Virus record (IMG/VR): IMGVR_UViG_3300031867_000031
Coordinates: 18,332-82,331 of that record
Direction: 5' to 3' (one strand)
DNA length: 64,000 nucleotides
DNA from: a virus
Lineage: Duplodnaviria; Caudoviricetes
In this document: in pieces, positions 15,782 through 62,787 of the stretch
Position numbering within the stretch: position 1 is the first letter of the stretch
Layout: every line of letters begins with the position of its first letter
Position numbers and translations under genes: made by a program
Notes under the pieces: model-generated
What the model was told of the DNA's origin: nothing
Databases searched by the model: none
Seen by the model: the letters and a program-made list of their open reading frames with translations, nothing else

Positions 15782-16780
15782 ATGGAGTATTTACCCTCCT
15801 ATAAGGATGATTTATATTTAGCTCACCATGGTATTCTTGGCCAAAAGTGGGGTGTTAGACGATTTCAAAACTCAGATGGTTCTTTAACCCGTGCTGGCAG
15901 AGCTCGATACGGCAATTCAGAAAATAGTACTAAATCCAATAACAAACTTAAAACTGCTGCAAAAGTTGCTGGCGCGGCTACGGCTGTTGGTTTAGCCGGA
16001 ATGGGTGCGTACGCAATATCTAAGAGTGGCATGCCGGTTGGCGGAGTACATAATATTTCTGAATTGCGTAAACCTGGTTTACCAATTTTAACTCAACGTG
16101 ACAGTTCCATGGCTACTGCTGCTATAAAAGTTAACCCGAATGCCAAAAGCGGAAATGATGCATATTTGTTTAATTGTACTCATTGCTCAGTTGCATATGA
16201 TCTTCGTAGACGAGGTTATGATGTTGAAGCTGGACCAGGCCATGTGCATCTAGAGCGTTTTATGCGAAAAGCATATGCTGGAGCAGAATACCATACTATT
16301 CCGGGTATAAGTTCTGGTGGAGGAGCTGCGGCTAAAGATAGAGAGCTTAGTATTAAAAATCTTCGTACTAATCTACGAATGCAAAAACAAGCTCAAAAAC
16401 AAGCCATCGATGATCCCCAAGGTTTTGCTAGAGATCAAAGACGGATGACTGACAATATTCTTAAACAATGTGAGGATATGGGTCCTGGAGCTAGAGGAGC
16501 TATTAATCTTACTCTTGCTAACGGTATGGGTCATTGTATTGCTTTTGAATGCGACGAAAAAGGTCAGGCGCATCTTATTGATTCGCAGCTAATTGCTACA
16601 ACTACTGGAATACTTGGAATGGGTGGTGCGCATGGCACCAGAGGTTCCTCATATGTTGATGATTTTATAGCTAAAAGCATACTTCCATGTATGCCAGTTA
16701 GTGTAACGCGGTATGATAATGCAGAACCGAACATTGAGTTTTTAAAGAAGAAACGAATAGTAGTACCAAGTGAAGGTTAG
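15782..16780 (+). CDS. HHG..WG-leader (DUF7211-like) protein with C-terminal papain-fold toxin domain (Tox-PL-like)
   Basis: Leader YLAHHGILGQKWGVRRFQN; NCTHCSVAYDLRRRGYDVEA, GHCIAFE and LIDSQ give a Cys-His-Asp triad. Confidence 0.75.
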   Translation: MEYLPSYKDDLYLAHHGILGQKWGVRRFQNSDGSLTRAGRARYGNSENSTKSNNKLKTAAKVAGAATAVGLAGMGAYAISKSGMPVGGVHNISELRKPGLPILTQRDSSMATAAIKVNPNAKSGNDAYLFNCTHCSVAYDLRRRGYDVEAGPGHVHLERFMRKAYAGAEYHTIPGISSGGGAAAKDRELSIKNLRTNLRMQKQAQKQAIDDPQGFARDQRRMTDNILKQCEDMGPGARGAINLTLANGMGHCIAFECDEKGQAHLIDSQLIATTTGILGMGGAHGTRGSSYVDDFIAKSILPCMPVSVTRYDNAEPNIEFLKKKRIVVPSEG

Positions 16781-16794
16781 TGAGGTGAATATTA

Positions 16795-17037
16795 ATGTCT
16801 CCGGATCGTGCGATAAAAATTGCTGAAAATAAATTGCATATGGTCTGTACTGGTTTTGGATATGAATACGAAGGCGATTACTATTTAGAAATGGCTCCAC
16901 AGAATTATAATCCGAACAAAGATGGTGCAATTTCTGATTCTTGTTATAAAGTTGATTCTGTTACGGCAAAAGTGACGCCATATAGTCCGGCGGTAAATGG
17001 TATACAAGATATTAGAAAGATGCACTTTTTTAATTAA
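16795..17037 (+). CDS. Putative immunity protein for the upstream papain-fold toxin
   Basis: 80 aa, starts 14 nt after the toxin stop; helix-then-strands pattern (AIKIAENKL...YYLEM...CYKVDSVTAKV); assignment is by position. Confidence 0.5.
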   Translation: MSPDRAIKIAENKLHMVCTGFGYEYEGDYYLEMAPQNYNPNKDGAISDSCYKVDSVTAKVTPYSPAVNGIQDIRKMHFFN

Positions 17038-17049
17038 ACGGTGGTAGCC

Positions 17050-17691
17050 ATGTATGAAATGAATGATTTATTTTTAATGCATCATGGAATCAAGGGTCAG
17101 AAATGGGGTGTAAGAAGATTTCAAAATCCTGATGGCTCTTTAACTAAAGCAGGAACTAAAAGATATCGACAGGAACGTCGATCATTGAGACGAGATATTC
17201 GAAAAATACAAAGATCTAACTATTTAAAAACTGGTAGCATTGACGGCAAATACGCTAGTAAAGTGAATAAAAAAATAAGCACGGCTCAACGCAATGACAA
17301 AGAATACCAGAGACTTAGTAGGAAAGTTACGCAAGCAGAAAACGAAGCTTCAGCTGCTTCAAACTTAAGAGATAGAGCATCAGAACATAATATGGACATT
17401 GCGGAATATGAGTATGATAAAGCATATTCCAGATTAAATACAGCACTTACTGAAAAAGAAGCACGAGGTAAACAAATAGCAGATCGATATTTAAACGAAT
17501 ATCATAATGCTAAAATTAAAGATCTAGGTTTTAGTGATGTTGAACAAGGTAGAAAATATTTTGAACACTATAATTTATTAAACGTTGTTTATACTGATTC
17601 GAATGCTGGCTCTAGGAATGCTAATAGAGCAATAGATGCCATACGTGACAGTGCGAAAATAGCCAATGCATATCGCAAAGCTCATAGCTAA
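17050..17691 (+). CDS. HHG..WG-leader protein with helical C-terminal region
   Basis: FLMHHGIKGQKWGVRRFQNPDGSLT; ATG at 17050 after GGTGGT. Confidence 0.7.
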   Translation: MYEMNDLFLMHHGIKGQKWGVRRFQNPDGSLTKAGTKRYRQERRSLRRDIRKIQRSNYLKTGSIDGKYASKVNKKISTAQRNDKEYQRLSRKVTQAENEASAASNLRDRASEHNMDIAEYEYDKAYSRLNTALTEKEARGKQIADRYLNEYHNAKIKDLGFSDVEQGRKYFEHYNLLNVVYTDSNAGSRNANRAIDAIRDSAKIANAYRKAHS

Positions 17692-17707
17692 TTAAAAGGT
17701 GGTAGCT

Positions 17708-18760
17708 ATGGACGAAACAAGTGATTTATTTTTAATGCATCACGGAATTAAAGGTATGAAGTGGGGAGTGCGTAGATTCGAGGATGCAAATGGCCATCTT
17801 ACGCCTGCCGGTAAGCGTCGATATGGTATACAAGATGCTCGCAAATATTATAAAATTAATAGACTTCAGCGAATGAGTGAGCGAAGCGATAATCCTAGAA
17901 TAAAGAATTTACTTTCTGGAGAAATTCGTCGAACGCAAACTCGTTCTGATAGAAAACACGCCGATTTAAACAAACAAGATATTAATGCCGGTAGAGAAAT
18001 TGTCGCGAAGCACAGACTTAAATGGGCGGGAGTTAATACTGCTGCTAAAGCCGCATTAACAGCTGCTGGATCTGCGTATTTATATTCTAATCCTAATACT
18101 AGAGCACTTGCTCCTGTTGCATTAGCTGGTGGAGCGGCATTAACTTATGGCAGTGCTAAAAAAGTGCCATATTACTTTATGGAAAATCGTCGCTATAAGC
18201 AAGTTAATCCAAAAAATGTTACAACAAAAGGATTGACTAAAAAGCAACAGGCACTCCGTAAAGCTGGAAAAATTGCATTAGGAGTTGGAGCAACAGCAGC
18301 CGTAGCCGGAACAAGCGCATATTTACTTAGTAAAGCTGCTAGAAATAACGCTAATAACAATACACCTAAAAAAGCGAGTGTTGCTACACAAGCCGTTTAT
18401 GATGCTAATAAACAGTATACTAAATCTAAAGCACAAGAAGCTGCTAAAGCATCAACCAAAAATGCTGTTAGAAATGGTGTATCTCAAGCTGGTCGAACTG
18501 TTAGAAATGTAGTAGGAAATGCCGCTCGAGCAGGTGTTCGAACTGTTAGAAATGCCGTGGTTAGTCGAGTTACACGAGATTTCGATCCAGATGATCCTAG
18601 TACATATGCTACGGCTATTCGAAATGGTCGAGACATATATAATAATATTAATAGTATTCGAACTAACGGTGCTCCGGCAGTGATTAGTATGGCGACACAA
18701 GCAACAATTGATGCGACTAACGATTTAATTGAGCGTTATAGAAATCGTCGAATGTCTTAG
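17708..18760 (+). CDS. HHG..WG-leader protein with Gly/Ala-rich hydrophobic helices
   Basis: FLMHHGIKGMKWGVRRFED; hydrophobic segments AAKAALTAAGSAYLY, VALAGGAALTYG and IALGVGATAAVAGTSAYLL. Confidence 0.7.
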   Translation: MDETSDLFLMHHGIKGMKWGVRRFEDANGHLTPAGKRRYGIQDARKYYKINRLQRMSERSDNPRIKNLLSGEIRRTQTRSDRKHADLNKQDINAGREIVAKHRLKWAGVNTAAKAALTAAGSAYLYSNPNTRALAPVALAGGAALTYGSAKKVPYYFMENRRYKQVNPKNVTTKGLTKKQQALRKAGKIALGVGATAAVAGTSAYLLSKAARNNANNNTPKKASVATQAVYDANKQYTKSKAQEAAKASTKNAVRNGVSQAGRTVRNVVGNAARAGVRTVRNAVVSRVTRDFDPDDPSTYATAIRNGRDIYNNINSIRTNGAPAVISMATQATIDATNDLIERYRNRRMS

Positions 18761-18771
18761 GAGATATTACT

Positions 18772-19065
18772 ATGAGTGATTTATACGGCGAAATGACTGA
18801 TGAAAAGTTTAATAAACTTGCTACTACTACCATTGCTAATTGGTGGAATAATCAGGATGAACTTGTTGACATATTCGGTTCAATTTCTCCAGATGAAGTG
18901 TATACTACATGGAAATGTAAAGCTATTGAGAATTTTAAAGGTTTATTCGGTGTTCCCCGCGATGGTGATGGTTTATATTTCGAGTTTACATTCCATGGTA
19001 AGAAAAACTGCTGTTATCTCGACGTTTATAAAAAGCAAACTCAAATAATTGTCGATCTTAATTAA
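18772..19065 (+). CDS. DUF6275-like phage protein
   Basis: VYTTWKCKAIENFKGL...DGLYFEFTFHGKKNCCYLDVYKK; family name from memory. Confidence 0.6.
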   Translation: MSDLYGEMTDEKFNKLATTTIANWWNNQDELVDIFGSISPDEVYTTWKCKAIENFKGLFGVPRDGDGLYFEFTFHGKKNCCYLDVYKKQTQIIVDLN

Positions 19066-19147
19066 AAATAGAATACAGTCCGCATAAAATACCTTTCCTA
19101 CATTGAGAGATACAAGAGGTGTGTCTCATATTTTGAAAGGAGAAAAG

Positions 19148-19567
19148 GTGTTAATTCCGATTAAGTTTCTAGAGTATATGGGATTTATTAAAAACGTGGA
19201 GGTTAGTGAAGAAGGACCATCATCTAAAGATTTGTTAGAGGAGCACTTGAAAGAGTGCATAACAGAAAATGCGTTGGAGCACGTTGACACTGATAAAGCA
19301 ACCAAGGGAGCACAGAACATCGAATTGCTCACAAAGTCAATGGAGCATCTTGAAAAAGCAGAAGCAGAGCGACTTAAAGTCGAACTTCAGCTAGCGGAGG
19401 CTCGGAGACGACAATGGGTTAATTGGGATGTTGTGCTGCCTAAAATGGTAGCAATAGGTGTCACAGGTGCCGTAACAGTGTTTTGGTTGTGCCTTGAACA
19501 AGGTACTCCGATACCAATGAGATTGGTGAAGATGGCATCGGACTTGACTGTCCCACGCGGACTGTAA
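19148..19567 (+). CDS. Hypothetical protein with C-terminal TM helix
   Basis: GTG after AAAGGAG; preceded by the promoter motif at 19080 and followed by a hairpin plus U-tract. Confidence 0.55.
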   Translation: MLIPIKFLEYMGFIKNVEVSEEGPSSKDLLEEHLKECITENALEHVDTDKATKGAQNIELLTKSMEHLEKAEAERLKVELQLAEARRRQWVNWDVVLPKMVAIGVTGAVTVFWLCLEQGTPIPMRLVKMASDLTVPRGL

Positions 19568-19651
19568 AAAACTCTAGAGGTGGTTAGTCGAAAGATTAAC
19601 CACCTTTTCTTTTTTTTTCAAAAGATGATAGGAGGGAGGAGTAGAAGACAT

Positions 19652-20293
19652 ATGGAGCATATTCCTACTTTCATTGACCAATTAGATGCAGATTATATTT
19701 CACACCATGGCATTAAAGGAATGCGTTGGGGTGTAAGAAGATATCAAAATCCTGATGGCACATTAACGGCTAAAGGTAAACAAAGATATAAAAATACTAA
19801 GGTAATGTATAAAGATTTGAAAAAACAAGTACACAAGCAACGTGCTAAAGAACATGGCGGATCTAATAGATGGAGGACAGTTACTCCAATAGGCGAACAT
19901 TCTCGTAAATACATAGATGATATTTCGAAAAAAGAAGAGGCATATCGTAATTCAGATGCCTATAAGAAATGGGAAAAAGATTATGATAGTTTTCAAAAAA
20001 ATTGGAATAGAAAATTTGAAAAAACACCTACTTATGATTCAAAATTAATAGACCAATATAATAAAGAAGATCGCGAAATGATTAAAAAACGACCTAGAAA
20101 AAATTTCAAAAGTCCCTATGATGGTTTTTATACAGTTACTTCACAAGGTAGAAAATACACTAAACGTTATCTTAATGGTGCCGGCAGAGATTTATCTATG
20201 GCCTATGTTAGAGATTTGGGCTATTCAGAATCTACAGCTAGTAAAATGGTTGATCAAATGATAAAGTCTGGACGAACTCTTGGCATGGACTGA
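19652..20293 (+). CDS. HHG..WG-leader protein
   Basis: MEHIPTFIDQLDADYISHHGIKGMRWGVRRYQNPDGTLT; GGAGG RBS. Confidence 0.75.
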   Translation: MEHIPTFIDQLDADYISHHGIKGMRWGVRRYQNPDGTLTAKGKQRYKNTKVMYKDLKKQVHKQRAKEHGGSNRWRTVTPIGEHSRKYIDDISKKEEAYRNSDAYKKWEKDYDSFQKNWNRKFEKTPTYDSKLIDQYNKEDREMIKKRPRKNFKSPYDGFYTVTSQGRKYTKRYLNGAGRDLSMAYVRDLGYSESTASKMVDQMIKSGRTLGMD

Positions 20294-20329
20294 CGATCAA
20301 CCACTTTTTCTTTTTAAGGATTTTTCAAA

Positions 20330-20617
20330 ATGGAAGAAACGTTGTATATACTTATTAGAGAAAACATAAACCATGGAATTCGATCTTATCAAATTATTGA
20401 TTATAATACTGACTATGATGTTTTAAATAGTCAACGCGAGTATTTAATTAACCGCATTTTTGAGCGTGGCGATGGTTGGCTCTCTGAATTTGCATATGAT
20501 TCATTTGGAAAATCATCAATTGTTAGATACGCTATGCTTCGGGATACTATTAGAATTTGTTTTTCTGAAGAGAAAAGTGTAGGTATACAATTTAAAATAA
20601 TAATCCTGACTCATTAG
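20330..20617 (+). CDS. Hypothetical protein
   Basis: 95-aa ORF, AAGGA RBS. Confidence 0.5.
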   Translation: MEETLYILIRENINHGIRSYQIIDYNTDYDVLNSQREYLINRIFERGDGWLSEFAYDSFGKSSIVRYAMLRDTIRICFSEEKSVGIQFKIIILTH

Positions 20618-20669
20618 TTAATATTTTAAATCTAATTGAGTTCGCCAATTTTACCGACTCTTATATGAG

Positions 20670-20756
20670 AAGAATAGTAAAATAGTAGGTTAAAAGGTAA
20701 AACCACTATCACCGGACAGAAATACGGGTTCGAGCCCCGTCTATTTTACTATTCTT
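20670..20756 (+). ncRNA. tRNA-like RNA with a 16-bp extended acceptor stem and a degenerate anticodon arm
   Basis: AAGAATAGTAAAATAG pairs perfectly with CTATTTTACTATTCTT; D arm GGTT-AAAAGGTAA-AACC; T arm ACGGG-TTCGAGC-CCCGT; promoter motif upstream and U-tract downstream. Confidence 0.6.
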
Positions 20757-20792
20757 TTTATTTTTTAGCTTCACAAGAATAGGAGGGTAGAA

Positions 20793-21518
20793 GTGGAACA
20801 CCTACCATCATTTATAGATGATCTTCATGTTGATATTAAGCCGTCATTTATTGCGCATTCATTTAGAGATGAACATGATGCTAAAATGATGTATGGGTTG
20901 CCTAAGGTAAAGAAATTTCCTATGCCTGACGCAAAGCATGTACGATCTGCTATTAGGTTTTTTAATTACGCTAAACCATCTCAAGAACAAGAGTTAGCTA
21001 ATGCTATTCTAGCTCGAATGGATGATTATGGTATCGACCCCGATGATATTAATGTCGGTGATGATAATCGTTTTAAGAAATATTTACAGCATTCATATTT
21101 AGCGCATCATGGCATTAAAGGAATGCATTGGGGTGTGAGAAGGTATGAAAATTATGACGGCACTCTAACCGCTGCCGGTAAAAAACGTTATGAAGGATTA
21201 GATCGCAAAAGTCAAAAAGCTAAAAAGAAATATTTAAAAATGATGGATAAAGATATGGAAAATCATTTTTACAATCAGTTAAGTCCGAATGCTAGAAAAG
21301 TTTCTGCAATTGGGCGCAATGGACGTGAGATACTTGGACAAGCTTGGGGAGAAGCGTATCGAAAAGGATACGTAACCGATAAAGATCATGCACAAATTAA
21401 GAAAGCAGCTAAAGAGACTCGTTCATATATGTCCAAAAAGTATGGCGATTCTGCAATGAAAGCTTTTACAAGATCTGGAGTACTTTTTAGAAAAATTGAT
21501 GATTTTGATACGTTATAG
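20793..21518 (+). CDS. Two-part protein: DUF6582-like domain followed by an internal HHG..WG leader
   Basis: KKFPMPDAKHVRSAIRFFNY domain, then YLAHHGIKGMHWGVRRYEN at 21105. Confidence 0.65.
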   Translation: MEHLPSFIDDLHVDIKPSFIAHSFRDEHDAKMMYGLPKVKKFPMPDAKHVRSAIRFFNYAKPSQEQELANAILARMDDYGIDPDDINVGDDNRFKKYLQHSYLAHHGIKGMHWGVRRYENYDGTLTAAGKKRYEGLDRKSQKAKKKYLKMMDKDMENHFYNQLSPNARKVSAIGRNGREILGQAWGEAYRKGYVTDKDHAQIKKAAKETRSYMSKKYGDSAMKAFTRSGVLFRKIDDFDTL

Positions 21519-21608
21519 AATCAACTATACTTTTATATTTTTCGCAGAAAAAACTCCTCCTTTATAGCAAGAGTCCAAAAGAGACTTAACTATTGAGAGG
21601 AGTTGTAT

Positions 21609-21923
21609 ATGAGCGGGACAGCTATTCCAGCATATAACCATGATGACCGTAATCATTGGTTTATTTGGCATGTGTTGGCTCACGAGCTCACGGAGGAGGA
21701 TTTCGAGGCAATTCAGTTGGCCCTCATCGAGCGCGAGGATGATCACAAAGCGATTGACAAGACGCAAGTGGTGTTCCACGAATTCGATAAGGGAACTATG
21801 ATGCAGCCAAGGCCTGTTCCTGAGTTTTATAAGCAAAAGGCGCATCGCTACGTAGACTGGTCTACGGCCATGGATATTTGCATGGTCCTTAGCAAGTACA
21901 CAGATTTCTATAGCAAGAAGTAA
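21609..21923 (+). CDS. Hypothetical protein in its own promoter-terminator cassette
   Basis: Promoter motif at 21541, GAGGAG RBS, terminator at about 21937-21970; higher GC than its neighbours. Confidence 0.55.
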   Translation: MSGTAIPAYNHDDRNHWFIWHVLAHELTEEDFEAIQLALIEREDDHKAIDKTQVVFHEFDKGTMMQPRPVPEFYKQKAHRYVDWSTAMDICMVLSKYTDFYSKK

Positions 21924-22139
21924 AGGACTTTTGAAAAAGGATTGTGAGGTCGAAAGACTTTACAATCCTTTTTTCTTTTTTTTACTATACTTTATTTTTT
22001 AGGAGGAATTAGACGTTAGTTATATTTCAAATCATGGTATTTTAGTGTATGAAACACTCTTACAAAACCCCAGGTAAACGGCTTGTTAAAAAGCGTTTTT
22101 AGAGCTTAAAAATTGACAAACGACTAATTACCCATAAAG

Positions 22140-22526
22140 TTGGCGATTTCAATTATGTCGTATGATAGAGATGGTGATATTTTTAAGCTTCATAATATAG
22201 GAGTCTCGGATATGAAACTTTCAGAGTTTTACAAATTGTCTAAACAACGAATTCGTCAAATTATTTTTGAGCAACGTCGTAGACATAGAAAAGGCAACCC
22301 TGATATTCCACAAATTGATACCATGTGCAGAATTCTTGGTTGGAGAGAAAATGAGAGAGGAAAACTTCAATCGATTTTGCACAAGAATGGATACACTTCG
22401 TATGATGATAAATGGCGAGATTTATCCTCGGATGATATTTTAGCCATACCTTTGTTGGGGCCGTCTGCTGTGTGCATTATTTGGCTTGCTCAAAACATGG
22501 ATGACGAAACGGATTCGACTAAATAG
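22140..22526 (+). CDS. Sigma70 region-4-like HTH fused to an RNAP alpha-CTD-like domain
   Basis: LSKQRIRQI (sigma 4.2-like) and ILHKNGY...LSSDDILAIPLLGPSAV (alpha-CTD-like HhH). Confidence 0.55.
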   Translation: MAISIMSYDRDGDIFKLHNIGVSDMKLSEFYKLSKQRIRQIIFEQRRRHRKGNPDIPQIDTMCRILGWRENERGKLQSILHKNGYTSYDDKWRDLSSDDILAIPLLGPSAVCIIWLAQNMDDETDSTK

Positions 22527-22537
22527 GATTTGGATAT

Positions 22538-22726
22538 TTGATGATACTTTTAGTTATTAGCATTTTGGTATCTATAACGATAGATGCTTCGCTTAAAGTA
22601 ATTAGTTTTATGAGTATGTATTCGAGATATATGAGTTCTGCATATTTGAAATTTATTAGAGCGCAAATTGCTATTAGCATAATCGAGCTATTTAGTATTG
22701 CGTTGTTGATAGTTCGGTTGGGTTAG
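22538..22726 (+). CDS. Small two-TM membrane protein
   Basis: Two hydrophobic stretches in 62 aa. Confidence 0.5.
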   Translation: MMILLVISILVSITIDASLKVISFMSMYSRYMSSAYLKFIRAQIAISIIELFSIALLIVRLG

Positions 22727-22740
22727 GAGGGTAAAAGATT

Positions 22741-23368
22741 ATGGAGTATCTTCCGACTTTTATTGATCAATTAGATGTAGATTATATTTCACATCATGGA
22801 ATTAAAGGAATGCATTGGGGGTATAAGAAGGTATCAGAATGCTGATGGTTCTTTGACACCTGCTGGAAGAAAACGGTATGACGAAACAACAAAGCTTATG
22901 CGACGTGCTGATTCTTATGAATCTGCTGCTAAACATTTAAATTCGCAAATACATCCTAACAAAAGTAGGATAGAACGCGCTAGAATAATGACTCAAGCTG
23001 TAAAAGCACAACAAAAAGCGGATCGTATACGCTCAAGATTAGACCCCGATATTGTTTCTAAAATTGAACAGGATAGAAAAATTGAATTGAAGAAAAAGCA
23101 AGCGGCAAAAGAAAAAGAATGGCATAATAGTCCATCTAGCAGAAGATATCGTTTTATGGATGACGCAATGCATGAAGTATTTGGAGCAAATACCAAAAGT
23201 GATTATAGGAATCTATATAGAGAAATGAGTAAGGACAAACGTTTTAAAAATTTATTAGATTCTGAAGATAATGATGATTACAAAGAAGCAGAAGCGGCTT
23301 GGCTTAAAAAGCATGGGTATTGGGAATCATATTTAGATGCTATACATAATGGTTATAAAGACATATAA
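22741..23368 (+). pseudogene. Frameshifted HHG..WG-leader gene (+1 G in a G5 run)
   Basis: From ATG 22741: MEYLPTFIDQLDVDYISHHGIKGMHWG, then stop at 22843-22845. The expected IRRYQNADGSLT continues in another frame; deleting one G of 22817-22821 joins them. Confidence 0.75.
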
Positions 23369-23727: not shown

Positions 23728-23735
23728 AACTTTTT

Positions 23736-38130: not shown

Positions 38131-38206
38131 GCGCCCTTAGCTCAGTTGGCAGAGCAGGGGACTTTTAATCCCAAGGTCATGGGTTCGAGACCCATAGGGC
38201 GCACCA
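38131..38206 (+). tRNA. tRNA-Lys(TTT)
   Basis: Full cloverleaf: GCGCCCT/AGGGCGC, loop CTTTTAA, T arm ATGGG-TTCGAGA-CCCAT, encoded CCA. Confidence 0.95.
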
Positions 38207-38219
38207 TTTATATTTTTAT

Positions 38220-38311
38220 GGAGCCGAATAAGTATGTAGTTGGTAGTCGAATGACTTTAAACTGAAGCCAACTGTAGGAAAAGGCATGGCTAGATAGGGC
38301 GGGGATCTGGT
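38220..38311 (+). ncRNA. Structured intergenic RNA, copy B (GGYGGGG-loop family)
   Basis: Same layout as copy A with covarying stems: TGTAGTTGG/CCAACTGTA, AGTC/GACT, GCTAGAT-AGGGCGGGG-ATCTGGT. Confidence 0.5.
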
Positions 38312-38344
38312 TTATATTTCAAGCTCGAGAGAAAGCGAGAGGTA

Positions 38345-38614
38345 ATGAAAGTTGTAATCAATGATTGTTTCGGCGGTTTTTCTATTAATCATGAAATCGC
38401 TAAACAATATTTTAATGGCGAATGGTATGAAATAAAACGAACCGATCCTACTCTAATCTCTTTGATAGAGTCGGGTATAGACTGCAACGGTTCAAGTGCA
38501 GAATTGAAAGTAGTAGAAATTCCTGAGAATGCTACTGATTGGCGTATGATTGAATACGATGGAGCAGAGTACATCATATATGTAGTCGACGGTAAAATGC
38601 ATTCTATTTATTAA
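38345..38614 (+). CDS. Conserved phage hypothetical protein
   Basis: MKVVINDCFGGFS...RTDPTLI..IE...LKVVEIP...W...EYDGAE. Confidence 0.65.
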   Translation: MKVVINDCFGGFSINHEIAKQYFNGEWYEIKRTDPTLISLIESGIDCNGSSAELKVVEIPENATDWRMIEYDGAEYIIYVVDGKMHSIY

Positions 38615-38801
38615 TGATGTTTACGGGAGACATTTATTGTCACAATGCCTAAAGTTGTAGGGAGTTCTGGTGGGGTTAGGCATTTGAATATTTATGGGTG
38701 AGTTCCCGCCATTGGAAGCGTTCTAGAGTAGGCTTCTAATGGATAGGTGTTAGTGCAACTCGGACTAGTAGCGGGGATGGGTCTACTAGTGAATTATATT
38801 T

Positions 38802-38885
<84 letters not shown>

Positions 38886-38919
38886 TTTATATTTTTAACT
38901 CTTCATAGAAAGTAACAAA

Positions 38920-39926: not shown

Positions 39927-39935
39927 AATGTTTAT

Positions 39936-40011
39936 GCGCCCTTAGCTCAGTTGGTAGAGCAGGAGACTTTTAATCTCAAGGTCATGGGTTCGAGACCCAT
40001 AGGGCGCACCA
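39936..40011 (+). tRNA. tRNA-Lys(TTT), second copy
   Basis: Cloverleaf almost identical to 38131; anticodon stem differs by compensatory changes; CCA. Confidence 0.95.
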
Positions 40012-40044
40012 TTTATATTTTTAATTAAAAGGAACAAGAATTGT

Positions 40045-40242
40045 ATGAATAATTGGAATAAATATTTTATTAAAGATGTATTACTTGTATCAATTGTGTC
40101 TACCATCGGATTTGTTTACTCGATTAGTGAAATGGCTAAGCTATGGTTTAATTATATATTTAATCCGATGCAGCTAATGCTAGTAGCTATATGTTTGTTC
40201 ATCATTCTTACAATTGTATTTATATTTGCAGGAAGAGTTTAG
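40045..40242 (+). CDS. Small two-TM membrane protein
   Basis: AAGGA RBS; two hydrophobic helices. Confidence 0.55.
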   Translation: MNNWNKYFIKDVLLVSIVSTIGFVYSISEMAKLWFNYIFNPMQLMLVAICLFIILTIVFIFAGRV

Positions 40243-40259
40243 ATACCATGCTGATTAAT

Positions 40260-40331
40260 GGCCTTGTAGCATAACGGTTAGTGCAGCCGGCTCATAACCG
40301 GTGGATCAGAGTTCAACTCTCTGCGGGGCCA
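40260..40331 (+). tRNA. tRNA with CAT anticodon (elongator Met or Ile2)
   Basis: GGCCTTG/CGGGGCC, GCCGG-CTCATAA-CCGGT, T arm CAGAG-TTCAACT-CTCTG; followed by CCT, not CCA; lacks the initiator 3 G-C pairs. Confidence 0.85.
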
Positions 40332-40367
40332 CCTATTGATATTTTAGCTCACGAGAAAGCAAGATCA

Positions 40368-40799
40368 ATGAATACTAAAAAGATGGTAAAATTTAATCCG
40401 AATGATATTTTAGAAAAATTGGAAAATCTAGGTATCAAACAATCGTATTTGGGTAATCAGAATTCTATTTACTACATCGGATATTCTAATGCGATTATTA
40501 GCAAAGCATTTAGAACTGGTATGATACATCCAGATGTCTTAGACAAAATCGAAACATTAATTACATATTTAAGTAATCCATGTTTAAAACGACCAACTAT
40601 CATTAACTTTGTAGAATTACAAACTCGTAATGATATTCTACAAAAACAAGTAGATTCTCTAAAAGATCGAGATGCTGATAAAGTAAAAGAGCTCACAGAC
40701 ATAATCAGACAAGTATCAACTGATCTAACAGTCTATAGCGAGCAATTTCTACGTGCCAGCAATTTCTTAGACTATTCTATAAAAAAAAAAAATAACTGA
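40368..40799 (+). CDS. Putative HTH (XRE-like) protein with coiled coil
   Basis: GIKQSYLG..NSIYYIGYSNAII, similar to 41322. Confidence 0.45.
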   Translation: MNTKKMVKFNPNDILEKLENLGIKQSYLGNQNSIYYIGYSNAIISKAFRTGMIHPDVLDKIETLITYLSNPCLKRPTIINFVELQTRNDILQKQVDSLKDRDADKVKELTDIIRQVSTDLTVYSEQFLRASNFLDYSIKKKNN

Positions 40800-40813
40800 T
40801 ATTTGTGCTTAAT

Positions 40814-40886
40814 GCCCCTGTAGCTCAGTGGATAGAGCAGAGGTCTTCTAAACCTAAGGTCGCAGGTTCGAATCCTGTCAGGGGCA
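40814..40886 (+). tRNA. tRNA-Arg(TCT)
   Basis: GCCCCTG/CAGGGGC, loop CTTCTAA, T arm GCAGG-TTCGAAT-CCTGT; followed by CCT. Confidence 0.92.
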
Positions 40887-40914
40887 CCTATTGATATTTT
40901 AGGAGTATGGCATC

Positions 40915-45647: not shown

Positions 45648-46199
45648 TTGCCTAAGTTATTTGTTAGCCTACCAATGAATGGCCGAGAAATTGATGATAT
45701 TCGTTCTGACATGCATGCAATCTGCCAGATTGTATCTGCAGAGATGGGCGAACAGTTCGAACTGATAGATACCGTTTGGACTGATGAGCCGCCCATTGAT
45801 ATTCTGAATGATCCCGGATCTTGTGGAGCATGGTATTTAGGTAAGTCTATTAGCGCTCTCGCTGAAGCCGATCTTGCTGTATTTGATAGTGATTGGCGTT
45901 TTGCTAGAGGATGCATTGTTGAGCATATGATGTGTTCGTTGTATAATATTCCGTATGTCGATATGAGTATGTCATATTCCGACGATGATGAGGAAGTTAA
46001 CGATTATACAGTAGATCGTAATGAAGCTGCTAGAATCAATAACATTCTCAGCGAGGAGTATGAAGAGGATGCGCTCGGCTTCGAGCATGATGATATTTAC
46101 GACTTAGAGGGTGAGGCTGAGGAGATTGAGGACGTCGAGGATGATGAAGACGATCCTGATGCTCTCGAGCCTGGTGAGTATGATGCGGATACAGAATGA
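45648..46199 (+). CDS. Nucleoside-deoxyribosyltransferase-like (DUF4406-like) protein with acidic tail
   Basis: KLFVSLPMNG...YLGKSISALAEADLAVF...W..ARGC.VEH. Confidence 0.6.
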   Translation: MPKLFVSLPMNGREIDDIRSDMHAICQIVSAEMGEQFELIDTVWTDEPPIDILNDPGSCGAWYLGKSISALAEADLAVFDSDWRFARGCIVEHMMCSLYNIPYVDMSMSYSDDDEEVNDYTVDRNEAARINNILSEEYEEDALGFEHDDIYDLEGEAEEIEDVEDDEDDPDALEPGEYDADTE

Positions 46200-47353
46200 T
46201 ATTCGGTGAAAAAATTTTCAGGGCTTTAGGCGAGCTTCGAGCTGCTGAAGTTGATGATGACACTGATATTTCTCATCATGGAATTAAAGGTCAGCAATGG
46301 GGCGTACGGAATGGCCCTCCATACCCATTGAACAGTCATCAGCGAATTTCTAAAAAGTCTTACGAAAAACTTAATGATATTTATAAGTCGATGCCGTTAT
46401 CAGATAGACGTTTAATCGACCCCGATACTAATGACGGTGACGGATATTTTTCGAGCTATCATGAATACAAAAAGCAAGTAGCCTATAATGGATTAGCTGA
46501 TGATGGATTCATTATTGCTGAAAAAATTTCCAGCGAAGACAACGTCGATGGAACTCGTGGAGTTGAAATCGGGATAGGAGTCATATCTAAAGGCAAAGGA
46601 ACTGGTACTCGGTTGGTCGACGACATGAAAACTTGGTTTAATAATCAAGATGAGTATGATTCTATGTGGTGGCCTGTCGATAAGGATAACAAAGCCTCTA
46701 TAGCACTTGCCAGAAAAGCTGGTTTTATAAAAGACCCTTATGGGAGTAATTATATTTACGGCAAAAAAGAGGCAATGAAAAAACTTGGCATACCACCTGA
46801 GAATACTGAAATGTTGCCTAATTATTCCGGCCATGCATATTTCATTTCGAGTAATGATTCATTAACTGAGTTAGATCCCAGAGTGCCTGATAATTTCTTT
46901 ACAAGAAACGGCTATGAGGATTCTAATACTCCAAGAATTTCATTTGCTCCAAGCATCGATAAATGTTTAGCAGGACTGTCGCAAAATGTGGATGGCCAAA
47001 CTTTTTCTGTATACGAGCCAAATGATATTTCGAAGCATACTGTATACAAGCCAAATGCAAAAGCAGTTCCAGATTCCGGTATAACAGATGAGTTATGGAT
47101 TTGTGAAAACGTTCCTTTAAAGAAAAGTGGAACTATAACAGTAACTGGTAATCGAGGAGAGGCCGGTCGTATATTTTCATATGGAGATCAACAAGCTGAA
47201 TTATTTGACGATTGGACTTATGAATCTAATCCGGTAAAGCATGATGCGTCTACGTTGTTTGGTGAACGAGTTACTTCTAATGATATTTATTACATGGAAA
47301 TTCGAGAGAAACTTAATCCAGGCGTACGCGTTATTCGATATTATCCAAACTAA
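46196..47353 (+). CDS. HHG..WG-leader protein with a GNAT acetyltransferase domain and an ART-like C-terminal domain
   Basis: ISHHGIKGQQWGVRNGPPYP; SKGKGTGTRLV (acetyl-CoA motif) and DNKASIALARKAGF; then RISFAPSIDKC...VPD..TDELWI. Confidence 0.65.
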   Translation: MIFGEKIFRALGELRAAEVDDDTDISHHGIKGQQWGVRNGPPYPLNSHQRISKKSYEKLNDIYKSMPLSDRRLIDPDTNDGDGYFSSYHEYKKQVAYNGLADDGFIIAEKISSEDNVDGTRGVEIGIGVISKGKGTGTRLVDDMKTWFNNQDEYDSMWWPVDKDNKASIALARKAGFIKDPYGSNYIYGKKEAMKKLGIPPENTEMLPNYSGHAYFISSNDSLTELDPRVPDNFFTRNGYEDSNTPRISFAPSIDKCLAGLSQNVDGQTFSVYEPNDISKHTVYKPNAKAVPDSGITDELWICENVPLKKSGTITVTGNRGEAGRIFSYGDQQAELFDDWTYESNPVKHDASTLFGERVTSNDIYYMEIREKLNPGVRVIRYYPN

Positions 47354-47466: not shown

Positions 47467-48363
47467 ATGAAAGCAGGAGCTATCCTAAAGATTCAAAAGG
47501 TATTAGTGAAAAACGCACCAACAATACTTGCGGTGATGGGAGGTATTGGTACTATTGCCGCAGTGTGTATGAGTTCGGACGCCGCGCTTAAAGCTAAGCA
47601 GGCTATTGAAGATGCTGAGCGAGAAGCAAAAGGCGATGACTATGAATTATATTCTGAGTGCAAGGAACTTGCAAAGAAAGGCTATCAGGAGACGGCTATT
47701 GTTAAGAAGCTTGATATTTCAGAAGATAAGCTTGATGTAGTTAAGTCGCCTCTTAGTAAGGCAGACAAGGTATGGATCTATGCGAAAGCATATGGTCCTA
47801 CGGCTATCATGACAACTGCCAGTCTCGTGTGCATTTTCGGATCAAATCATATCAATAAGAAACGTATTGCTTCTCTTGCTGGTGCATATCTTATGAGCGA
47901 GACTGCACTGAAAGAGTATAAGGAGAAGGCTAAGGAAGTTGTTGGAGTTAAGAAGGCTCAGGAGATTTCTGATGAGATCATTCAGGAAAAGGTAAACAAT
48001 AATCCGCCTAATCCCGAAGCTGTGGCAAATGCCGATACGCCAGCTATGCGAAATGTCGTAGACCTAAGTCTATGGTATGATGTGGTTAGCGATAGATATT
48101 TCTACAGCAATGCCGATCAAATTCGTAGAGCAGAGCTAGAAGCTCAAAAGATGCTCAACAAGAATGGTTTCGTATCGATCAATGATATTTACGCAATACT
48201 TGGATTGCGTGATATTCCAATCGGAAACGATATTGGTTGGCAGAAAGATCGCAATAAGGATGTGGTGCTTGTGATCGGTGGAGCACTCGATGATAATGGA
48301 CAGCCTATTGGTACTATGGATATGGATGTTCATCCGTCAAGTGCGTGGCTTAGTGAAGTGTGA
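47467..48363 (+). CDS. DUF6353-like protein
   Basis: KNAPTILAVMG.IG...YGPTAI...KRIASLAGAY...DRYFYS...GFVSINDIY.ILG...IGW; family name from memory. Confidence 0.6.
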   Translation: MKAGAILKIQKVLVKNAPTILAVMGGIGTIAAVCMSSDAALKAKQAIEDAEREAKGDDYELYSECKELAKKGYQETAIVKKLDISEDKLDVVKSPLSKADKVWIYAKAYGPTAIMTTASLVCIFGSNHINKKRIASLAGAYLMSETALKEYKEKAKEVVGVKKAQEISDEIIQEKVNNNPPNPEAVANADTPAMRNVVDLSLWYDVVSDRYFYSNADQIRRAELEAQKMLNKNGFVSINDIYAILGLRDIPIGNDIGWQKDRNKDVVLVIGGALDDNGQPIGTMDMDVHPSSAWLSEV

Positions 48364-50383: not shown

Positions 50384-51325
50384 ATGGGTATGGCATCTAT
50401 CATTAAGCATGTAAAGGTTCCATCAAGCATGGCAAAGATTGCACTTAAAGCTAAGAAGCATGCTCCCGAGATTATGATTGTGACCGGAACAGTTCTTGTG
50501 GTGGGCAGTGCTGTGATGGCATGCAAGCAGACACTTAAGGCTCATGAAGTTCTTGAGAAGGCTAATGCAGATCTTGATGAGGTTAGCAAGGCGCTTGAGA
50601 CTTGTGACGAGGCGTCATATTCCCCTGAGGACGCTAAGAAGGATCGCCGTAACGTTTATATTAAGACGGGTTGGGAGCTTACTAAGACCTACGGTCCGTC
50701 AATCATTGGCGGTGTTGTCGGTTTCACCCTGATATTTGGAGCACACAAGATTCTTCGCGGTCGTAACGCAGCTCTTACTCTTGCATACACGAACCTTCTC
50801 AGCTCCTATAATAGGTATCGTAAGCATATTGCTGACGAGTTTGGCGAGGAGAAGGAGAAGCTTCTTGCAGCAGGTGCCGAGACGACTGATATTTCTGTCG
50901 TGAAGGAGGATGGCACTGTCGAGGAGGTTAAGAACGCTTCTGTAATTCATGACACTAGCGAGAATCATTCTCCTTATGCACGGATATTTGAGGCGACGAA
51001 CTCGAGTTGGTCTCCCAATCCGGCTACGAATCTTTTCTATCTTCGTTCTCAGGAGAATTTCGCAAATGAGAAGCTTCAGGCAGATGGATATTTGTTCCTG
51101 AATGATGTATATCAGATGCTCGGATTTCCTCGCACATCCGAGGGTCAGATTGTCGGTTGGGTTTATGATCCCGACAATCCAGAGCACAATGGCGATAATC
51201 ATGTCGATTTTGGAATCTATGATCTTCTTTACAAGGGCGAGGAAAAGGCGGATTTCATCAACGGTTATAATCCCTGCATCTGGCTCGATTTCAATGTTGA
51301 TGGTGTAATTTACGACCTTATTTGA
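50384..51325 (+). CDS. DUF6353-like protein (paralogue of 47467)
   Basis: KHAPEIMIVTG...YGPSII...RNAALTLAY...GYLFLNDVYQMLG...VGW. Confidence 0.65.
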   Translation: MGMASIIKHVKVPSSMAKIALKAKKHAPEIMIVTGTVLVVGSAVMACKQTLKAHEVLEKANADLDEVSKALETCDEASYSPEDAKKDRRNVYIKTGWELTKTYGPSIIGGVVGFTLIFGAHKILRGRNAALTLAYTNLLSSYNRYRKHIADEFGEEKEKLLAAGAETTDISVVKEDGTVEEVKNASVIHDTSENHSPYARIFEATNSSWSPNPATNLFYLRSQENFANEKLQADGYLFLNDVYQMLGFPRTSEGQIVGWVYDPDNPEHNGDNHVDFGIYDLLYKGEEKADFINGYNPCIWLDFNVDGVIYDLI

Positions 51326-57853: not shown

Positions 57854-57856
57854 CAA

Positions 57857-59493: not shown

Positions 59494-60034
59494 ACACGCA
59501 TTTTTAGGAGCAAGCAAATATTCTTGGCTCGGTTATGATGCTGAAAAGTTAAGAGAGTCATATTTGAGCAATCAAGCTCGATATAGAGGAACTCAATTGC
59601 ATGAGCTTGCTAGTCAACTTATTAAGTTAGGCGTTAAGCTTCCTGATACTCATCAAACGCTTAATTTGTTTGTTAATGATGCTATTGGCTATCGAATGCA
59701 ATCTGAGCAAATTTTATATTATTCCAATAATTGTTTTGGAACTGCTGATGCTATATCCTATAAAGAACGTGACAAGAAACTCAGAATTCACGATCTTAAG
59801 ACCGGAGTAACCCCGGCATCTATGAAACAGTTGTATATTTATACAGCATTGTTTTGTTTAGAGTATGCTATGGATCCTCACCAAATGGACATAGAACTTC
59901 GTATTTATCAGTCAGATGACGTCGAAATTGAGATTCCTGAAACAACAGATATTTTACAAGTTATGCAACAGATTCGCAGTTTCGACATGATTCTGAATGA
60001 ACTTCGAGAAGAGGAGGAAAATGCATGGATGTAG
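59459..60034 (+). CDS. PD-(D/E)XK exonuclease (Cas4/RecB-like fold, no Fe-S cysteines seen)
   Basis: HAFLGAS, RGTQLHE, FGTADAI, IHDLKTG, QLYIY. Confidence 0.75.
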   Translation: MNFNKHFDLEGKHAFLGASKYSWLGYDAEKLRESYLSNQARYRGTQLHELASQLIKLGVKLPDTHQTLNLFVNDAIGYRMQSEQILYYSNNCFGTADAISYKERDKKLRIHDLKTGVTPASMKQLYIYTALFCLEYAMDPHQMDIELRIYQSDDVEIEIPETTDILQVMQQIRSFDMILNELREEEENAWM

Positions 60035-62787
60035 ACGAACGTGAGTATGCGTCATATTTGATGCATTATGGTACTCCTCGTCATTCTGGCAGGTATCCAT
60101 GGGGTTCTGGCGATAATCCTTATCAGCGTAATGCTAATTTTAGGTCATATGTTCTAGATCTTAGGCATCAAGGAATGAGTGATGCTGAAATTGCACGTGG
60201 CATGGGAATGACTAAGAACGAATTAGTGGCTGCTATGTCTCAAGCTCGTGCTGAAAATAGAGCAGAAGATGTTGCTGAAGCTAAACGGCTTATAGCTAAA
60301 GGATATTCTCAGTCAGCAGCTGCTCGTCGTATGGGTATTAATGAATCGCAAGTACGAAATCTGCTTAAGGAAGATATTCAAGATCGAGCAAATCGTTCTG
60401 CTGATACTGCTGAATTGCTTAAGCGAGAGCTTGAAGAGCATGGGGGTTATATTGACATCGGTCGTGGATCAGAAGAGTATATTGGCACTACGCAATATGT
60501 GCTAAAAAATGCTGTGGCTCAGCTTCATAACGAGGGTTACGAAATCCATAACGTTAAGGTGCAACAAGCTGGCACAGGTAAAAACACGACCGTTCAAGTA
60601 TTGTGCCCTCCCGGTACTCCATGGGTAGAGGTCGCTAACAACAAGGGCGATATTCGGTTAGTTAATGCACCATATGATCCAACCAGTAGCACTGGCAGAT
60701 CGATGCTTGGACTTGAAAAACCTGTTGGCATTGATCCAAAGCGTGTTATGATTCGGTATGCGGATGATGTTGGTCCTGATGGCGGAAAGGGTATTGAGAA
60801 AGATGGTGTAATCGAGCTTCGTAGAGGTGTCGATGACATATCCTTGGGAAAAGCTAATTACGCACAGGTTCGTATTAATGTTGGCGATACTCATTATTTA
60901 AAGGGCATGGCAGTTTATGGCGATAACATGCCAGATGGAGTAGATGTCATATTTAATACGAATAAACATCGAGATACTCCTATGATGGGGACTAAAGACA
61001 ATACCGTTTTAAAAGAAATGAAACGAAACAAAGAAACTGGTGAAATTGATTGGGATAATCCGTTTGGTGCCACTATAAAGACTGAAGGCGACACGAGTAC
61101 CAGTCTAAAACTTGCACAAAGATATTATGTAGATAAGAACGGCAAAAAGAAATTATCGGCAATTAATGTCGTTAATGAAGAAGGCGATTGGGAAACTTGG
61201 GCGCCCACATTATCGAGTCAGTTCTTATCTAAGCAAACGCCAGCTATGGCAAAACGTCAGCTTAAAATTGCTTCTGATGCACGTCAAGCCGAATTTGATG
61301 ACATATCCTCATTGACTAACCCAACTGTAAAAAAGAAGCTATTACTTGAATTTGCTGATGAATGCGATTCTGCAGCTGTTCATTTAAAGGCTGCTGCTTT
61401 GCCTAGACAGTCTAGTCATGTCATATTACCAGTGCCAGGTATTAAAGAGAATGAGATATTTGCTCCAAATTACAGAAACGGCGAGCAAGTAGCTCTTGTT
61501 CGACATCCTCATGCGGGCCGCTTTGAGATCCCTCTTCTTACGGTGAACAACAATTCTAAAGAAGCTGCTAAAGTTATAGGAAAAAATTCACCAGATGCTG
61601 TTGGTATTAATGCTAAAACTGCGGCCATATTATCTGGAGCAGATTTTGACGGCGATACCGTTCTTGTTATTCCTACTAAAGGTACCAATCTTAAAGCACA
61701 AGGTCCTCTTAAAGGACTTAAGGATTTCGAACCAAAAGATGCATATCGTGCATATCCTGGAATGCCTGAAACATCCAAGAAAAATGGCTTTAATAAACAG
61801 ATGGAAATGGGTAAAGTTTCCAATCTAATTACGGATATGACTTTAAAAGGTGCTGATGACGAAGAACTTGCTAGAGCGGTTAGACATTCTATGGTTGTAA
61901 TAGATGCTGAAAAGCATAATTTGGATTGGCGACGTTCTGCTAGAGAAAATGGCATATCTGAGCTTAAGAAAAAGTATCAGGGTGGTGCTAATGCTGGCGC
62001 ATCGACGTTGATTTCCAAAGCTAAAAGTGAGACTAGAGTTCCTGAACGCAAGGAAATATCGCCTGATAAGCGCACTGGTGAACGGCGTTATATTCCTACT
62101 GGCAAAACGCATAAAGATAGAAAAACTGGTAAAGATGTTGCTAATACTACAGTAACTACCAAAATGTTCGAAGCAAAAGATGCCAATGATTTGTCTTCTG
62201 GCACCGTTATGGAGAACATATATGCTGCCCATGCCAATAAGCTTAAAAGTCTTGCTAATCAAGCCCGAAAAGAAGCTCTTTCTTCGGAATCTGTGCCATA
62301 TTCTGCATCTGCTAGAAAAGCTTATGCCAAAGAGGTTGCTTCTTTGGATGGAAAGTACAAACTTGCTCAACGCAATAAACCACTAGAGCGTCAAGCACAG
62401 CTTATTGCAGAAACTGTGGTAAAAGCTAAAATAAGAGCTAATCCGGAACTTAAGGATGACAAAGATCATTTGAAGAAAGTTCAGCAACAAGCTCTTAGAG
62501 AAGCTAGAGAACGTACTGGTGCTAAGAAACGTGATTTCGACATTACTGATAAGGAGTGGGAAGCTATTCAAGCTGGAGCAATACATAAGACTCGCTTAGA
62601 AGCATTATTGGCTACTGCTGATAGCGATCGTGTTCATGAGCTTGCTATGCCTAAAACTACTCGTACTGTCAATCCTAATGTCATATCTAGAGCTAAAGCT
62701 ATGCAGGCGTCTGGTAAGACTCAAGCTGAAATCGCAGATGCTCTTGGTGTTAGTACTACTACAGTTAATACAATCCTGCGGAATTAG
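60025..62787 (+). CDS. Single-chain double-psi-beta-barrel RNA polymerase with HTH domains and an HYG..WG leader
   Basis: SGADFDGDT at 61642-61656, VRHP and LKG motifs, three HTH-like segments; N-terminus YLMHYGTPRHSGRYPWGSG. Confidence 0.75.
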   Translation: MDVDEREYASYLMHYGTPRHSGRYPWGSGDNPYQRNANFRSYVLDLRHQGMSDAEIARGMGMTKNELVAAMSQARAENRAEDVAEAKRLIAKGYSQSAAARRMGINESQVRNLLKEDIQDRANRSADTAELLKRELEEHGGYIDIGRGSEEYIGTTQYVLKNAVAQLHNEGYEIHNVKVQQAGTGKNTTVQVLCPPGTPWVEVANNKGDIRLVNAPYDPTSSTGRSMLGLEKPVGIDPKRVMIRYADDVGPDGGKGIEKDGVIELRRGVDDISLGKANYAQVRINVGDTHYLKGMAVYGDNMPDGVDVIFNTNKHRDTPMMGTKDNTVLKEMKRNKETGEIDWDNPFGATIKTEGDTSTSLKLAQRYYVDKNGKKKLSAINVVNEEGDWETWAPTLSSQFLSKQTPAMAKRQLKIASDARQAEFDDISSLTNPTVKKKLLLEFADECDSAAVHLKAAALPRQSSHVILPVPGIKENEIFAPNYRNGEQVALVRHPHAGRFEIPLLTVNNNSKEAAKVIGKNSPDAVGINAKTAAILSGADFDGDTVLVIPTKGTNLKAQGPLKGLKDFEPKDAYRAYPGMPETSKKNGFNKQMEMGKVSNLITDMTLKGADDEELARAVRHSMVVIDAEKHNLDWRRSARENGISELKKKYQGGANAGASTLISKAKSETRVPERKEISPDKRTGERRYIPTGKTHKDRKTGKDVANTTVTTKMFEAKDANDLSSGTVMENIYAAHANKLKSLANQARKEALSSESVPYSASARKAYAKEVASLDGKYKLAQRNKPLERQAQLIAETVVKAKIRANPELKDDKDHLKKVQQQALREARERTGAKKRDFDITDKEWEAIQAGAIHKTRLEALLATADSDRVHELAMPKTTRTVNPNVISRAKAMQASGKTQAEIADALGVSTTTVNTILRN

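Follow-up and report, generated by a model that had tools for sequence, protein, structure and literature searches.

Why should a papain-fold toxin, an acetyltransferase, an RNA polymerase and several proteins without a recognisable domain, all encoded by one phage, appear to share a short peptide at or near their N-terminus? The question is raised by a stretch of 64,000 nt (here called the window: the whole stretch of DNA that was analysed) taken from IMG/VR record IMGVR_UViG_3300031867_000031. The window comprises bases 18332-82331 of a single gut phage contig of 82,331 bp, which is rated 99% complete and has every long open reading frame (ORF) on the + strand. A first-pass annotation of the window had listed eight proteins with an HHG/HYG...WG leader, had named the leader DUF7211-like and had taken it for a capsid-loading or ejection signal or for a prohead-protease site. 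We find that these two ideas may well belong together: at a probability of about 55%, as we judge from sequence comparison, the DUF7211 tag combines a head-protease site with a capsid-loading tag for internal head proteins. Part of the evidence for this reading is the recurrence of the first residues of the tag in the acidic spacer of the head protease-capsid fusion of the same lineage.

The DUF7211 tag and the head protease-capsid fusion

The eight motifs were indeed present at 15824, 17080, 17738, 19703, 21105, 22792, 46274 and 60064, all on the + strand. A loose pattern that describes them had these 8 matches vs 0.04 in shuffled sequence (at most 1 in 100 shuffles), and a stricter pattern had 0 matches in shuffled sequence. 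The name was right as well, in that the Pfam family DUF7211 (PF23847) matches seven of the eight copies in the window. Relative to the gathering score of 27 bits, the copies in the genes at 17041, 17699, 19652 (ORF 19580) and 20793 score above it (33.5-45.6 bits), the copy at 15782 falls just under it (26.3 bits) and the copy at 46196 is weak (16.7 bits). The number of eight holds for the window; the genome contains ten, since two further canonical copies lie outside it, in ORFs at genome positions 1866-3461 (40.3 bits) and 3468-3947 (36.0 bits), directly before the large terminase gene. Similarly, the leader is N-terminal in eight of the nine canonical copies, the exception being the gene at 20793-21518, in which the tag is found at residue 101, behind a DUF6582-like insert. 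Nucleotide identity among the copies (58-77%) is no higher than amino-acid identity, which argues that the tags have been kept by selection on the peptide and are not the result of recent duplication. A second subtype, with ...WG(V/K)RNGPPYPL in place of ...WGVRRFQNxDG, was found in the acidic GNAT protein (motif at 46274) and in a cassette of a related contig (L011:1201-2097).

The tag is widespread: its profile matches 33,613 protein clusters at 50% identity. We derived a logo from 428 distinct internal copies, acidic/Ser-x-(D/N)-(Y/E)-L-(E/A)-H-H-G-I-K-G-Q-K-W-G-V-R-R-F-Q-N-x-D-G-(S/T)-L-T-x-A-G-K-K-R-Y, in which the residue two positions before the first His is Leu in 97% of the copies. 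The conserved unit thus has about 34 residues including the hydrophobic-x-His head, as compared to 25 residues in the Pfam model. The 36 further loci that we fetched all belong to the 1706-like lineage (TerL 68-99% identical to that of this phage), and the hot spots for tagged genes in them are the intervals between connector and TerL, between TerL and portal and, in the nearest relatives, after the lysis genes. In 105 of 111 tag-bearing ORFs the tag has an N-terminal position, starting as little as 4-5 residues after the Met. A tblastn search with the tags against cultured phages returned only FP_oengus and faecal contigs, a search too insensitive for a 34-aa motif to allow a conclusion on range, and a literature search found no paper on DUF7211, the function of which is unpublished.

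The highest-ranking matches of the tag profile were long proteins with 2-8 tags, with a new segment opening at each tag, for instance a 1,745-aa polyprotein of the form tag-GNAT-...-tag-glutamine deamidase; GNAT segments occur in such polyproteins. Three of the polyprotein genes were found to be real reading frames under translation table 11, so that relatives have in one fused reading frame what this phage encodes in separate genes. The polyproteins are encoded between connector and TerL (L002, L003) or between TerL and portal (L004, L009). A second hydrophobic-x-His lies at most 37 residues upstream of 70% of their internal tags, vs 24 +/- 2% in shuffled sequence, and such paired sites would fit excision of a linker.

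An indication of a function comes from the head module. In this phage, an S78 head protease, a spacer and an HK97-type capsid protein are joined in a single fusion protein of 689 aa. The spacer is strongly acidic (33% D+E, 4% K+R) and contains the hydrophobic-x-His site about eight times. In 48 distinct protease-spacer-capsid homologues, 353 of the 372 His residues of the spacer have L, I, M, V or F at position -2 (background 23%); the site is preceded by acidic residues and followed by a small one. An invariant His, His365, immediately precedes the capsid domain in 113 sequences (FLAH-GITNLDVLFPEAK). One of the spacer sites of this genome, DYISH157 (DYISH-AD), is identical to the start of the tag in the gene at 19652 (DYISH-HG). 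Because the same site is repeated in the spacer and also precedes the mature capsid domain, it is most likely the cleavage site of the head protease. The T4 prohead protease gp21 cuts after L/I-x-E. By analogy, hydrophobic-x-His is where we expect the S78 protease to cut, and each tag would begin with such a site; the prohead-protease site (L-x-H|HG) put forward in the first-pass annotation fits this.

Structure prediction was less informative on this point. In an AlphaFold2 model of the fusion the protease domain (1-118) and the capsid domain (approximately 390-680) are confident and the spacer is disordered, which gives no information on docking of the sites in cis. The predicted complex of the fusion with a tag had a score of 0.00, which counts neither for nor against the reading. 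We also considered and dropped mimicry of ribosomal protein L27 with Prp-dependent cleavage as in phage 80alpha: the starting point was an apparent resemblance of the tag to the N-terminus of L27 and to the 80alpha cleavage motif, and neither L27 (PF01016) nor Prp (PF04327) had a match in the genome.

Tagged genes, variable cargo and the RNA polymerase

Six tagged genes follow the lysis gene, all on the + strand (15782-23368). The first (15782..16780) encodes a protein with the His of the tag at residue 15, an Ala/Gly-rich hydrophobic segment and a papain-fold glutamine-deamidase toxin domain at residues 131-269 (isoelectric point (pI) 9.4). The toxin domain is well supported (PF15644, 30.5 bits vs a cut-off of 24.1, E 8.4e-7, profile positions 2-111 of 114), and homologues were found in three related contigs (L014, L009 and L022), where they are part of polyproteins. 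An untagged gene for an 80-aa protein without a family match (16795..17037, + strand) starts 14 nt after the toxin gene. In L014, a toxin with 37% identity is followed by a homologue of this small gene with 44% identity, the sole case of co-inheritance; in L009, a 79-aa ORF without significant similarity to it has the same position after a toxin-ended polyprotein. This supports, rather than proves, a role of the gene at 16795 as immunity protein for the toxin. The polymorphic toxin-immunity architecture that had been proposed for the whole system is thus evident in a single pair of a toxin and a co-inherited, immunity-like small gene, whereas most of the cargo is small and basic without a recognisable effector.

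The second tagged gene (17041..17691, probable ATG at 17050) encodes a basic protein (pI 9.9, PF23847 33.5 bits) that forms a singleton cargo cluster. The third (17699..18760, probable ATG at 17708; pI 10.7, 45.6 bits) has orthologues in 7 sources and a Gly/Ala-rich hydrophobic segment near residue 189 of its product. The product of the fourth (19652..20293, 38.5 bits) starts with MEH...DYISH-HG and so contains two hydrophobic-x-His sites. In the fifth (20793..21518, 38.2 bits) the DUF6582-like insert mentioned above (about 85 aa; weak, E 9e-4) separates an N-terminal (M)EH site from the tag, and the gene has a 98%-identical orthologue in L011. In the sixth (22741..23368) a frameshift interrupts the tag, within or beside a run of G at about 22816, so that the tag hidden Markov model (HMM) half-matches in two frames; the orthologue in L011 (L011:8082-8726, 95.6% identical) is intact, and either an error of sequencing or true inactivation of the gene may be behind the frameshift. 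The C-termini of the genes at 17041, 17699, 19580 and 20793 had no match to a known family (Pfam at E<=5). Two other elements were observed among these cassettes: a tRNA-like element with an odd anticodon loop between two of them (20679-20749) and a gene for a weakly matching Mor-like late transcription activator (22140-22526; Pfam E 3.6e-4, phrog_532) that is kept in L011 and L013.

A further tagged gene (46196..47353, + strand) is located at the edge of the replication module and encodes a GNAT acetyltransferase (PF13302 and PF00583 above cut-off) with the tag variant ...WGVRNGPPYPL, a C-terminal domain of unknown type and a pI of 5.2. The C-terminal domains named in the first-pass annotation largely stood (the papain-fold toxin at E 8e-7, GNAT and RNA polymerase), with the exception of the 'ART-like' (ADP-ribosyltransferase-like) domain of this protein, which was not confirmed: a PDB sequence search and Pfam at E<=5 were empty, and a weak lead from the atlas to an Arr-type ADP-ribosyltransferase (0.90, rank 25) was all that appeared. 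Of the two genes outside the window, the one at genome 1866-3461 encodes a scaffold-like protein of 531 aa with Ala/Arg/Ser-rich helical repeats and a pI of 11.9.

We built an HMM of the leader and catalogued the C-termini across relatives, as the first-pass annotation had suggested, and found them to be variable and swapped between near-identical phages instead of fixed. In 37 sources, the 111 tagged ORFs yielded 133 cargo segments in 74 clusters, 49 of which were singletons. The median pI of the cargo is 10.0 (87% above pI 9), and several cargo proteins contain Gly/Ala-rich hydrophobic segments. In two related contigs (L010 and L011) the flanking genes are 95-99% identical to those of this phage and a single unrelated tagged gene for a 298-aa protein replaces the toxin gene, its partner and the second cargo gene.

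The last motif in the window belongs to the RNA polymerase gene (60025..62787, + strand), the product of which opens with the peptide ..YLMH-YGTPRHSGRYPWGSG and has helix-turn-helix (HTH) domains at both ends. The polymerase is a two-barrel single-subunit enzyme of 920 aa (YonO/QDE-1-like; phrog_4291, E 0), with the catalytic motif ADFDGD at residues 539-544, invariant in 111 sequences. Its structural model has a mean confidence (pLDDT, predicted local distance difference test) of 79, and Foldseek related it to QDE-1 (E 1e-9), plant RDR2 and the polymerases gp62 and gp64 of the Thermus phages P74-26 and P23-45 (4e-7). Conservation within the family is highest over the first 36 residues, and residues 11-36 are modelled as disordered (pLDDT below 50) though invariant. 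This combination is what would be expected of a docking or processing peptide, i.e. a linear motif. The extreme N-terminal position, the acidic-hydrophobic-L-x-H-Y-G head and the WG that follows are shared with the tags. Nevertheless, the claim that the polymerase is tagged holds for a head of ten residues and not for the rest of the tag, which was not detected by Pfam, by the tag HMM at E<=10 or in the precomputed Pfam annotation of 120 homologues. A comparison of the two profiles by hhalign aligned ten columns only (x-x-x-L-x-H-(H/Y)-G; P = 6.6e-4, probability 27%). The polymerase probably carries the protease site followed by a peptide of its own, and in this way would be linked to the tags. 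Its gene lies a few kb before the head module in all eight loci that reach far enough upstream.

Annotation of cultured relatives provides some information on the particle. In the GenBank record of phage 1706, orf7, located between the connector gene and TerL and encoding two degenerate tags, is a 'structural protein', and so is orf75, the polymerase homologue (peptide LQHYGTKRHSGRYPWGSG). The product name of orf75 was copied by similarity to ReqiPepy6 gp106 and is the sole basis for a virion polymerase in this lineage; the 1706 labels reportedly go back to virion mass spectrometry from 2008. Literature searches found no virion polymerase for the 1706-like lineage. Rhodococcus phage ReqiPepy6 has eight tagged genes, of which gp013 precedes TerL and gp015-021 lie between TerL and portal; the products of gp015-021 open with DDFLAHYGVKGMKWGV, and the tag of gp013 is internal to its reading frame.

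With respect to the remainder of the genome, related contig L020 spans the junction of contig end and start without a break (96% identity over 1,923 nt), and the map is therefore closed. The gene order starts with an HNH endonuclease and a connector-like protein, followed by the two tagged genes outside the window, the large terminase, the portal, the protease-capsid fusion and tail genes that reach into the window. Within the latter, a 2,416-aa tail ORF (2803-10053) includes a part (4001-6000) with 56% G+C and negative GC skew, compared to 35-45% G+C in the rest of the genome. An NlpC/P60-CHAP lysin (12363-13097) precedes the six tagged genes. About 23 kb of small ORFs then separate this cargo cluster from the tagged GNAT gene and include an early region with five tRNA genes (Lys x2, Leu, Met and Arg; 38131-40888). 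An 8-mer, TGATATTT, occurs 59 times on the + strand and not on the - strand (approximately 3 expected, as estimated from base composition), between 609 and 57215 and mostly between 12000 and 57000, both within genes and between them; it is found directly 3' of several tRNA genes in the form ...CCTAT-TGATATTTTAG. The replication module contains a primase-polymerase (53256), a helicase (57857) and an exonuclease (59459), and two paralogues of phrog_2152 (function unknown) are found in the same region (47467-48363 and 50384-51325). Repeats take up the remaining 1.2 kb between the polymerase gene and the contig end. In this non-coding region (62796-63849), GGGTCATATTT occurs 11 times, always on the + strand; the copies belong to three units of 64 nt (63199-63366) and three of 97 nt (63516-63831), and on the closed map the array lies directly upstream of the HNH/head module. 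It could be a promoter set, a set of binding sites for the HTH domains of the polymerase or an origin- or cos-related array. The genome had no match to a separate scaffold-like family, and megablast of the cargo region against GenBank phages gave no match. The phage is a member of the group that comprises Lactococcus phage 1706, Faecalibacterium phage FP_oengus and the actinophage clusters AM, AU, AW, BI, CC, DJ and EL, for which the polymerase is the signature gene (bioRxiv 10.1101/842583).

A proposed address for internal head proteins and its alternatives

Taken together, DUF7211 would be a two-part address on the internal head proteins of the 1706-like siphophage lineage. The first part, acidic residues and hydrophobic-L-x-His, would be the cleavage site of the head protease, with the hydrophobic residue at P3 and His at P1 by analogy with T4 gp21. 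The second part, (H/Y)GIKGxKWGVRRFQNxDG(S/T)LTxAGKKRY, is basic and probably unfolded; it would remain part of the cargo and most likely keep it in the procapsid, presumably with the acidic spacer or the protease as its binding partner. It is plausible that the basic cargo is itself held by charge attraction to the spacer. The cargo would be made late, from separate genes as in this phage or as polyproteins cut at the tags, and its products, mostly small with a pI of about 10 and in part provided with Gly/Ala-rich membrane-type segments, would be packed together with the DNA. Enzymes would be found among them occasionally, like the glutamine-deamidase toxin with its immunity-like partner and the GNATs, and the polymerase would probably be loaded and processed likewise and so would belong with the virion polymerases of N4, crAss-like phages and P23-45. 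Injection of the cargo into the host is what we infer from this scheme.

Several observations weigh against this reading. Six of the nine canonical copies are located after the lysis genes, outside the head module, and the tagged GNAT protein is acidic and encoded among early or middle genes. Cleavage at the His would remove only 5-17 residues from N-terminal tags, which by itself does not explain the 30 conserved residues beyond the site. Finally, the evidence from phage 1706 consists of GenBank product names.

A role in assembly would account for a part of these data. The tagged basic proteins could be internal scaffold or DNA-condensing, charge-neutralising factors, with the tag as processing or docking element and with the toxin and GNAT domains as incidental additions. 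The high pI and the lack of enzyme domains in most of the cargo are in line with this, as are the resemblance of the 531-aa product of the gene at 1866-3461 to a scaffold, the lack of an identified separate scaffold gene, the presence of tagged genes in the head module and the highly acidic spacer. However, the extreme variability of the cargo and its exchange among near-identical phages would be atypical of essential assembly factors, the presence of a polymorphic-toxin domain and of a small partner gene inherited along with it points to action on a cell, and the product of 1706 orf7 is listed in the mature virion. We regard a pure assembly role as unlikely. An effect after delivery, with non-specific loading and with the basic part of the tag acting in membrane insertion or in binding of a host target, appears less probable still. 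It would explain why 30 residues beyond the putative cleavage site, which would stay on the mature protein, are conserved, and it agrees with the Gly/Ala-rich hydrophobic segment soon after the tag in several cargo proteins and with the annotation of ReqiPepy6 gp020 as a membrane protein. Nevertheless, a single host-directed function is difficult to reconcile with cargo as unlike as a deamidase, a GNAT and helical repeats, and with hosts in two phyla with different envelopes.

Another explanation concerns the polymerase only: its peptide could be a separate linear motif that resembles the head of the tag and binds DNA, a host factor or a phage regulator, the polymerase being a non-virion enzyme for middle or late transcription. 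The failure of Pfam and the tag HMM to find the motif and the short, low-probability hhalign match are as expected in that case; moreover, the polymerase gene and the exonuclease gene before it, which belongs to the replication module, overlap by 10 nt, and the related two-barrel phage polymerases include the non-virion enzymes P23-45 gp64 and P74-26 gp62. These points are opposed by the annotation of the 1706 homologue as a structural protein, by the common N-terminal acidic-hydrophobic-L-x-H-(H/Y)-G head with WG (actinophage tags, like the polymerase, use HYG), by the estimated chance of such a motif within 30 residues (approximately 1e-6 from residue frequencies) and by the co-occurrence of polymerase and tags in every locus that could be checked. 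On balance, we consider an independent polymerase motif rather improbable. The combined protease site and loading tag remains the reading that we prefer, and it may be extended, with due reserve and at less than even odds, to a programmable capture of substrates: the capsid protein would bring the protease and the acidic spacer into the procapsid, tagged proteins or polyprotein segments would be captured, trimmed and kept there, and a lineage that extends across Bacillota and Actinomycetota would inject a changing set of basic proteins and toxins and its own polymerase via a long non-contractile tail.

The issue has some weight, as DUF7211 occurs in more than 33,000 protein clusters and has no published function. 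The lineage holds hundreds of cultured phages (of Arthrobacter, Gordonia and Streptomyces, and Lactococcus phage 1706), so that the idea is directly testable. If true, it would provide a simple sequence rule for the proteins that Gram-positive siphophages carry into their hosts, including candidate anti-defence and takeover factors, would add a histidine-specific cleavage code to what is known of HK97-type head proteases, and would offer a peptide by which foreign proteins could be loaded into phage heads. The few phages known to come with an RNA polymerase of their own would moreover be joined by a large group of siphophages.

Comparison with known systems

Judged by analogy, the closest known system is the capsid targeting of T4-type phages. 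The T4 internal proteins IPI-III and Alt have capsid-targeting sequences that are cut by gp21. Both systems place a short N-terminal peptide on an enzyme and on unrelated, mostly basic proteins of the head interior (presumed ones in the case of this phage), with a hydrophobic residue two positions before the (here putative) cleavage residue, and in both the cargo would be delivered with the DNA, as we suppose for this phage. There are also clear differences: the putative P1 residue is His, compared to Glu in T4, the conserved 30 residues follow the site and do not precede it, the protease is fused to the capsid protein via an acidic spacer, the cargo can be a polyprotein, and the phage is a siphovirus of Gram-positive hosts in which the system is known from sequence alone. 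In phiKZ-type giant phages, the head protease gp175 processes inner-body proteins and virion polymerase subunits at S/A/G-x-E. Again a single short motif serves for the processing of many head-internal proteins and of polymerase components, as proposed here, whereas lineage, protease family, motif and particle size are all unlike those of this phage.

The MuF polymorphic toxins of temperate phages, reportedly described in 2012 and 2017, were the parallel drawn in the first-pass annotation. They are an analogue in that a conserved N-terminal module associated with the head carries toxin C-termini that can be swapped (the papain-fold Tox-PL1 (Gln_amidase) among them) and in that small immunity-like genes follow. 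The present system is not a member of that family: a Phage_Mu_F domain (PF04233) was absent from the genome at E<=1, the carrier is a peptide of about 34 aa and not a folded domain, and most of the cargo has no recognisable toxin. As for the polymerase, virion RNA polymerases are known from N4 (vRNAP) and the crAss-like phage phi14:2 (gp66). In Thermus phage P23-45, the virion polymerase is fused to the tape measure protein (PMC10770324). The two-barrel fold is common to gp66, the P23-45 enzymes and the polymerase described here, for which carriage in the particle is suggested by the single 1706 GenBank annotation; in contrast to a fusion with a tail protein, this enzyme of 920 aa is free-standing and has HTH domains as well as an N-terminal peptide.

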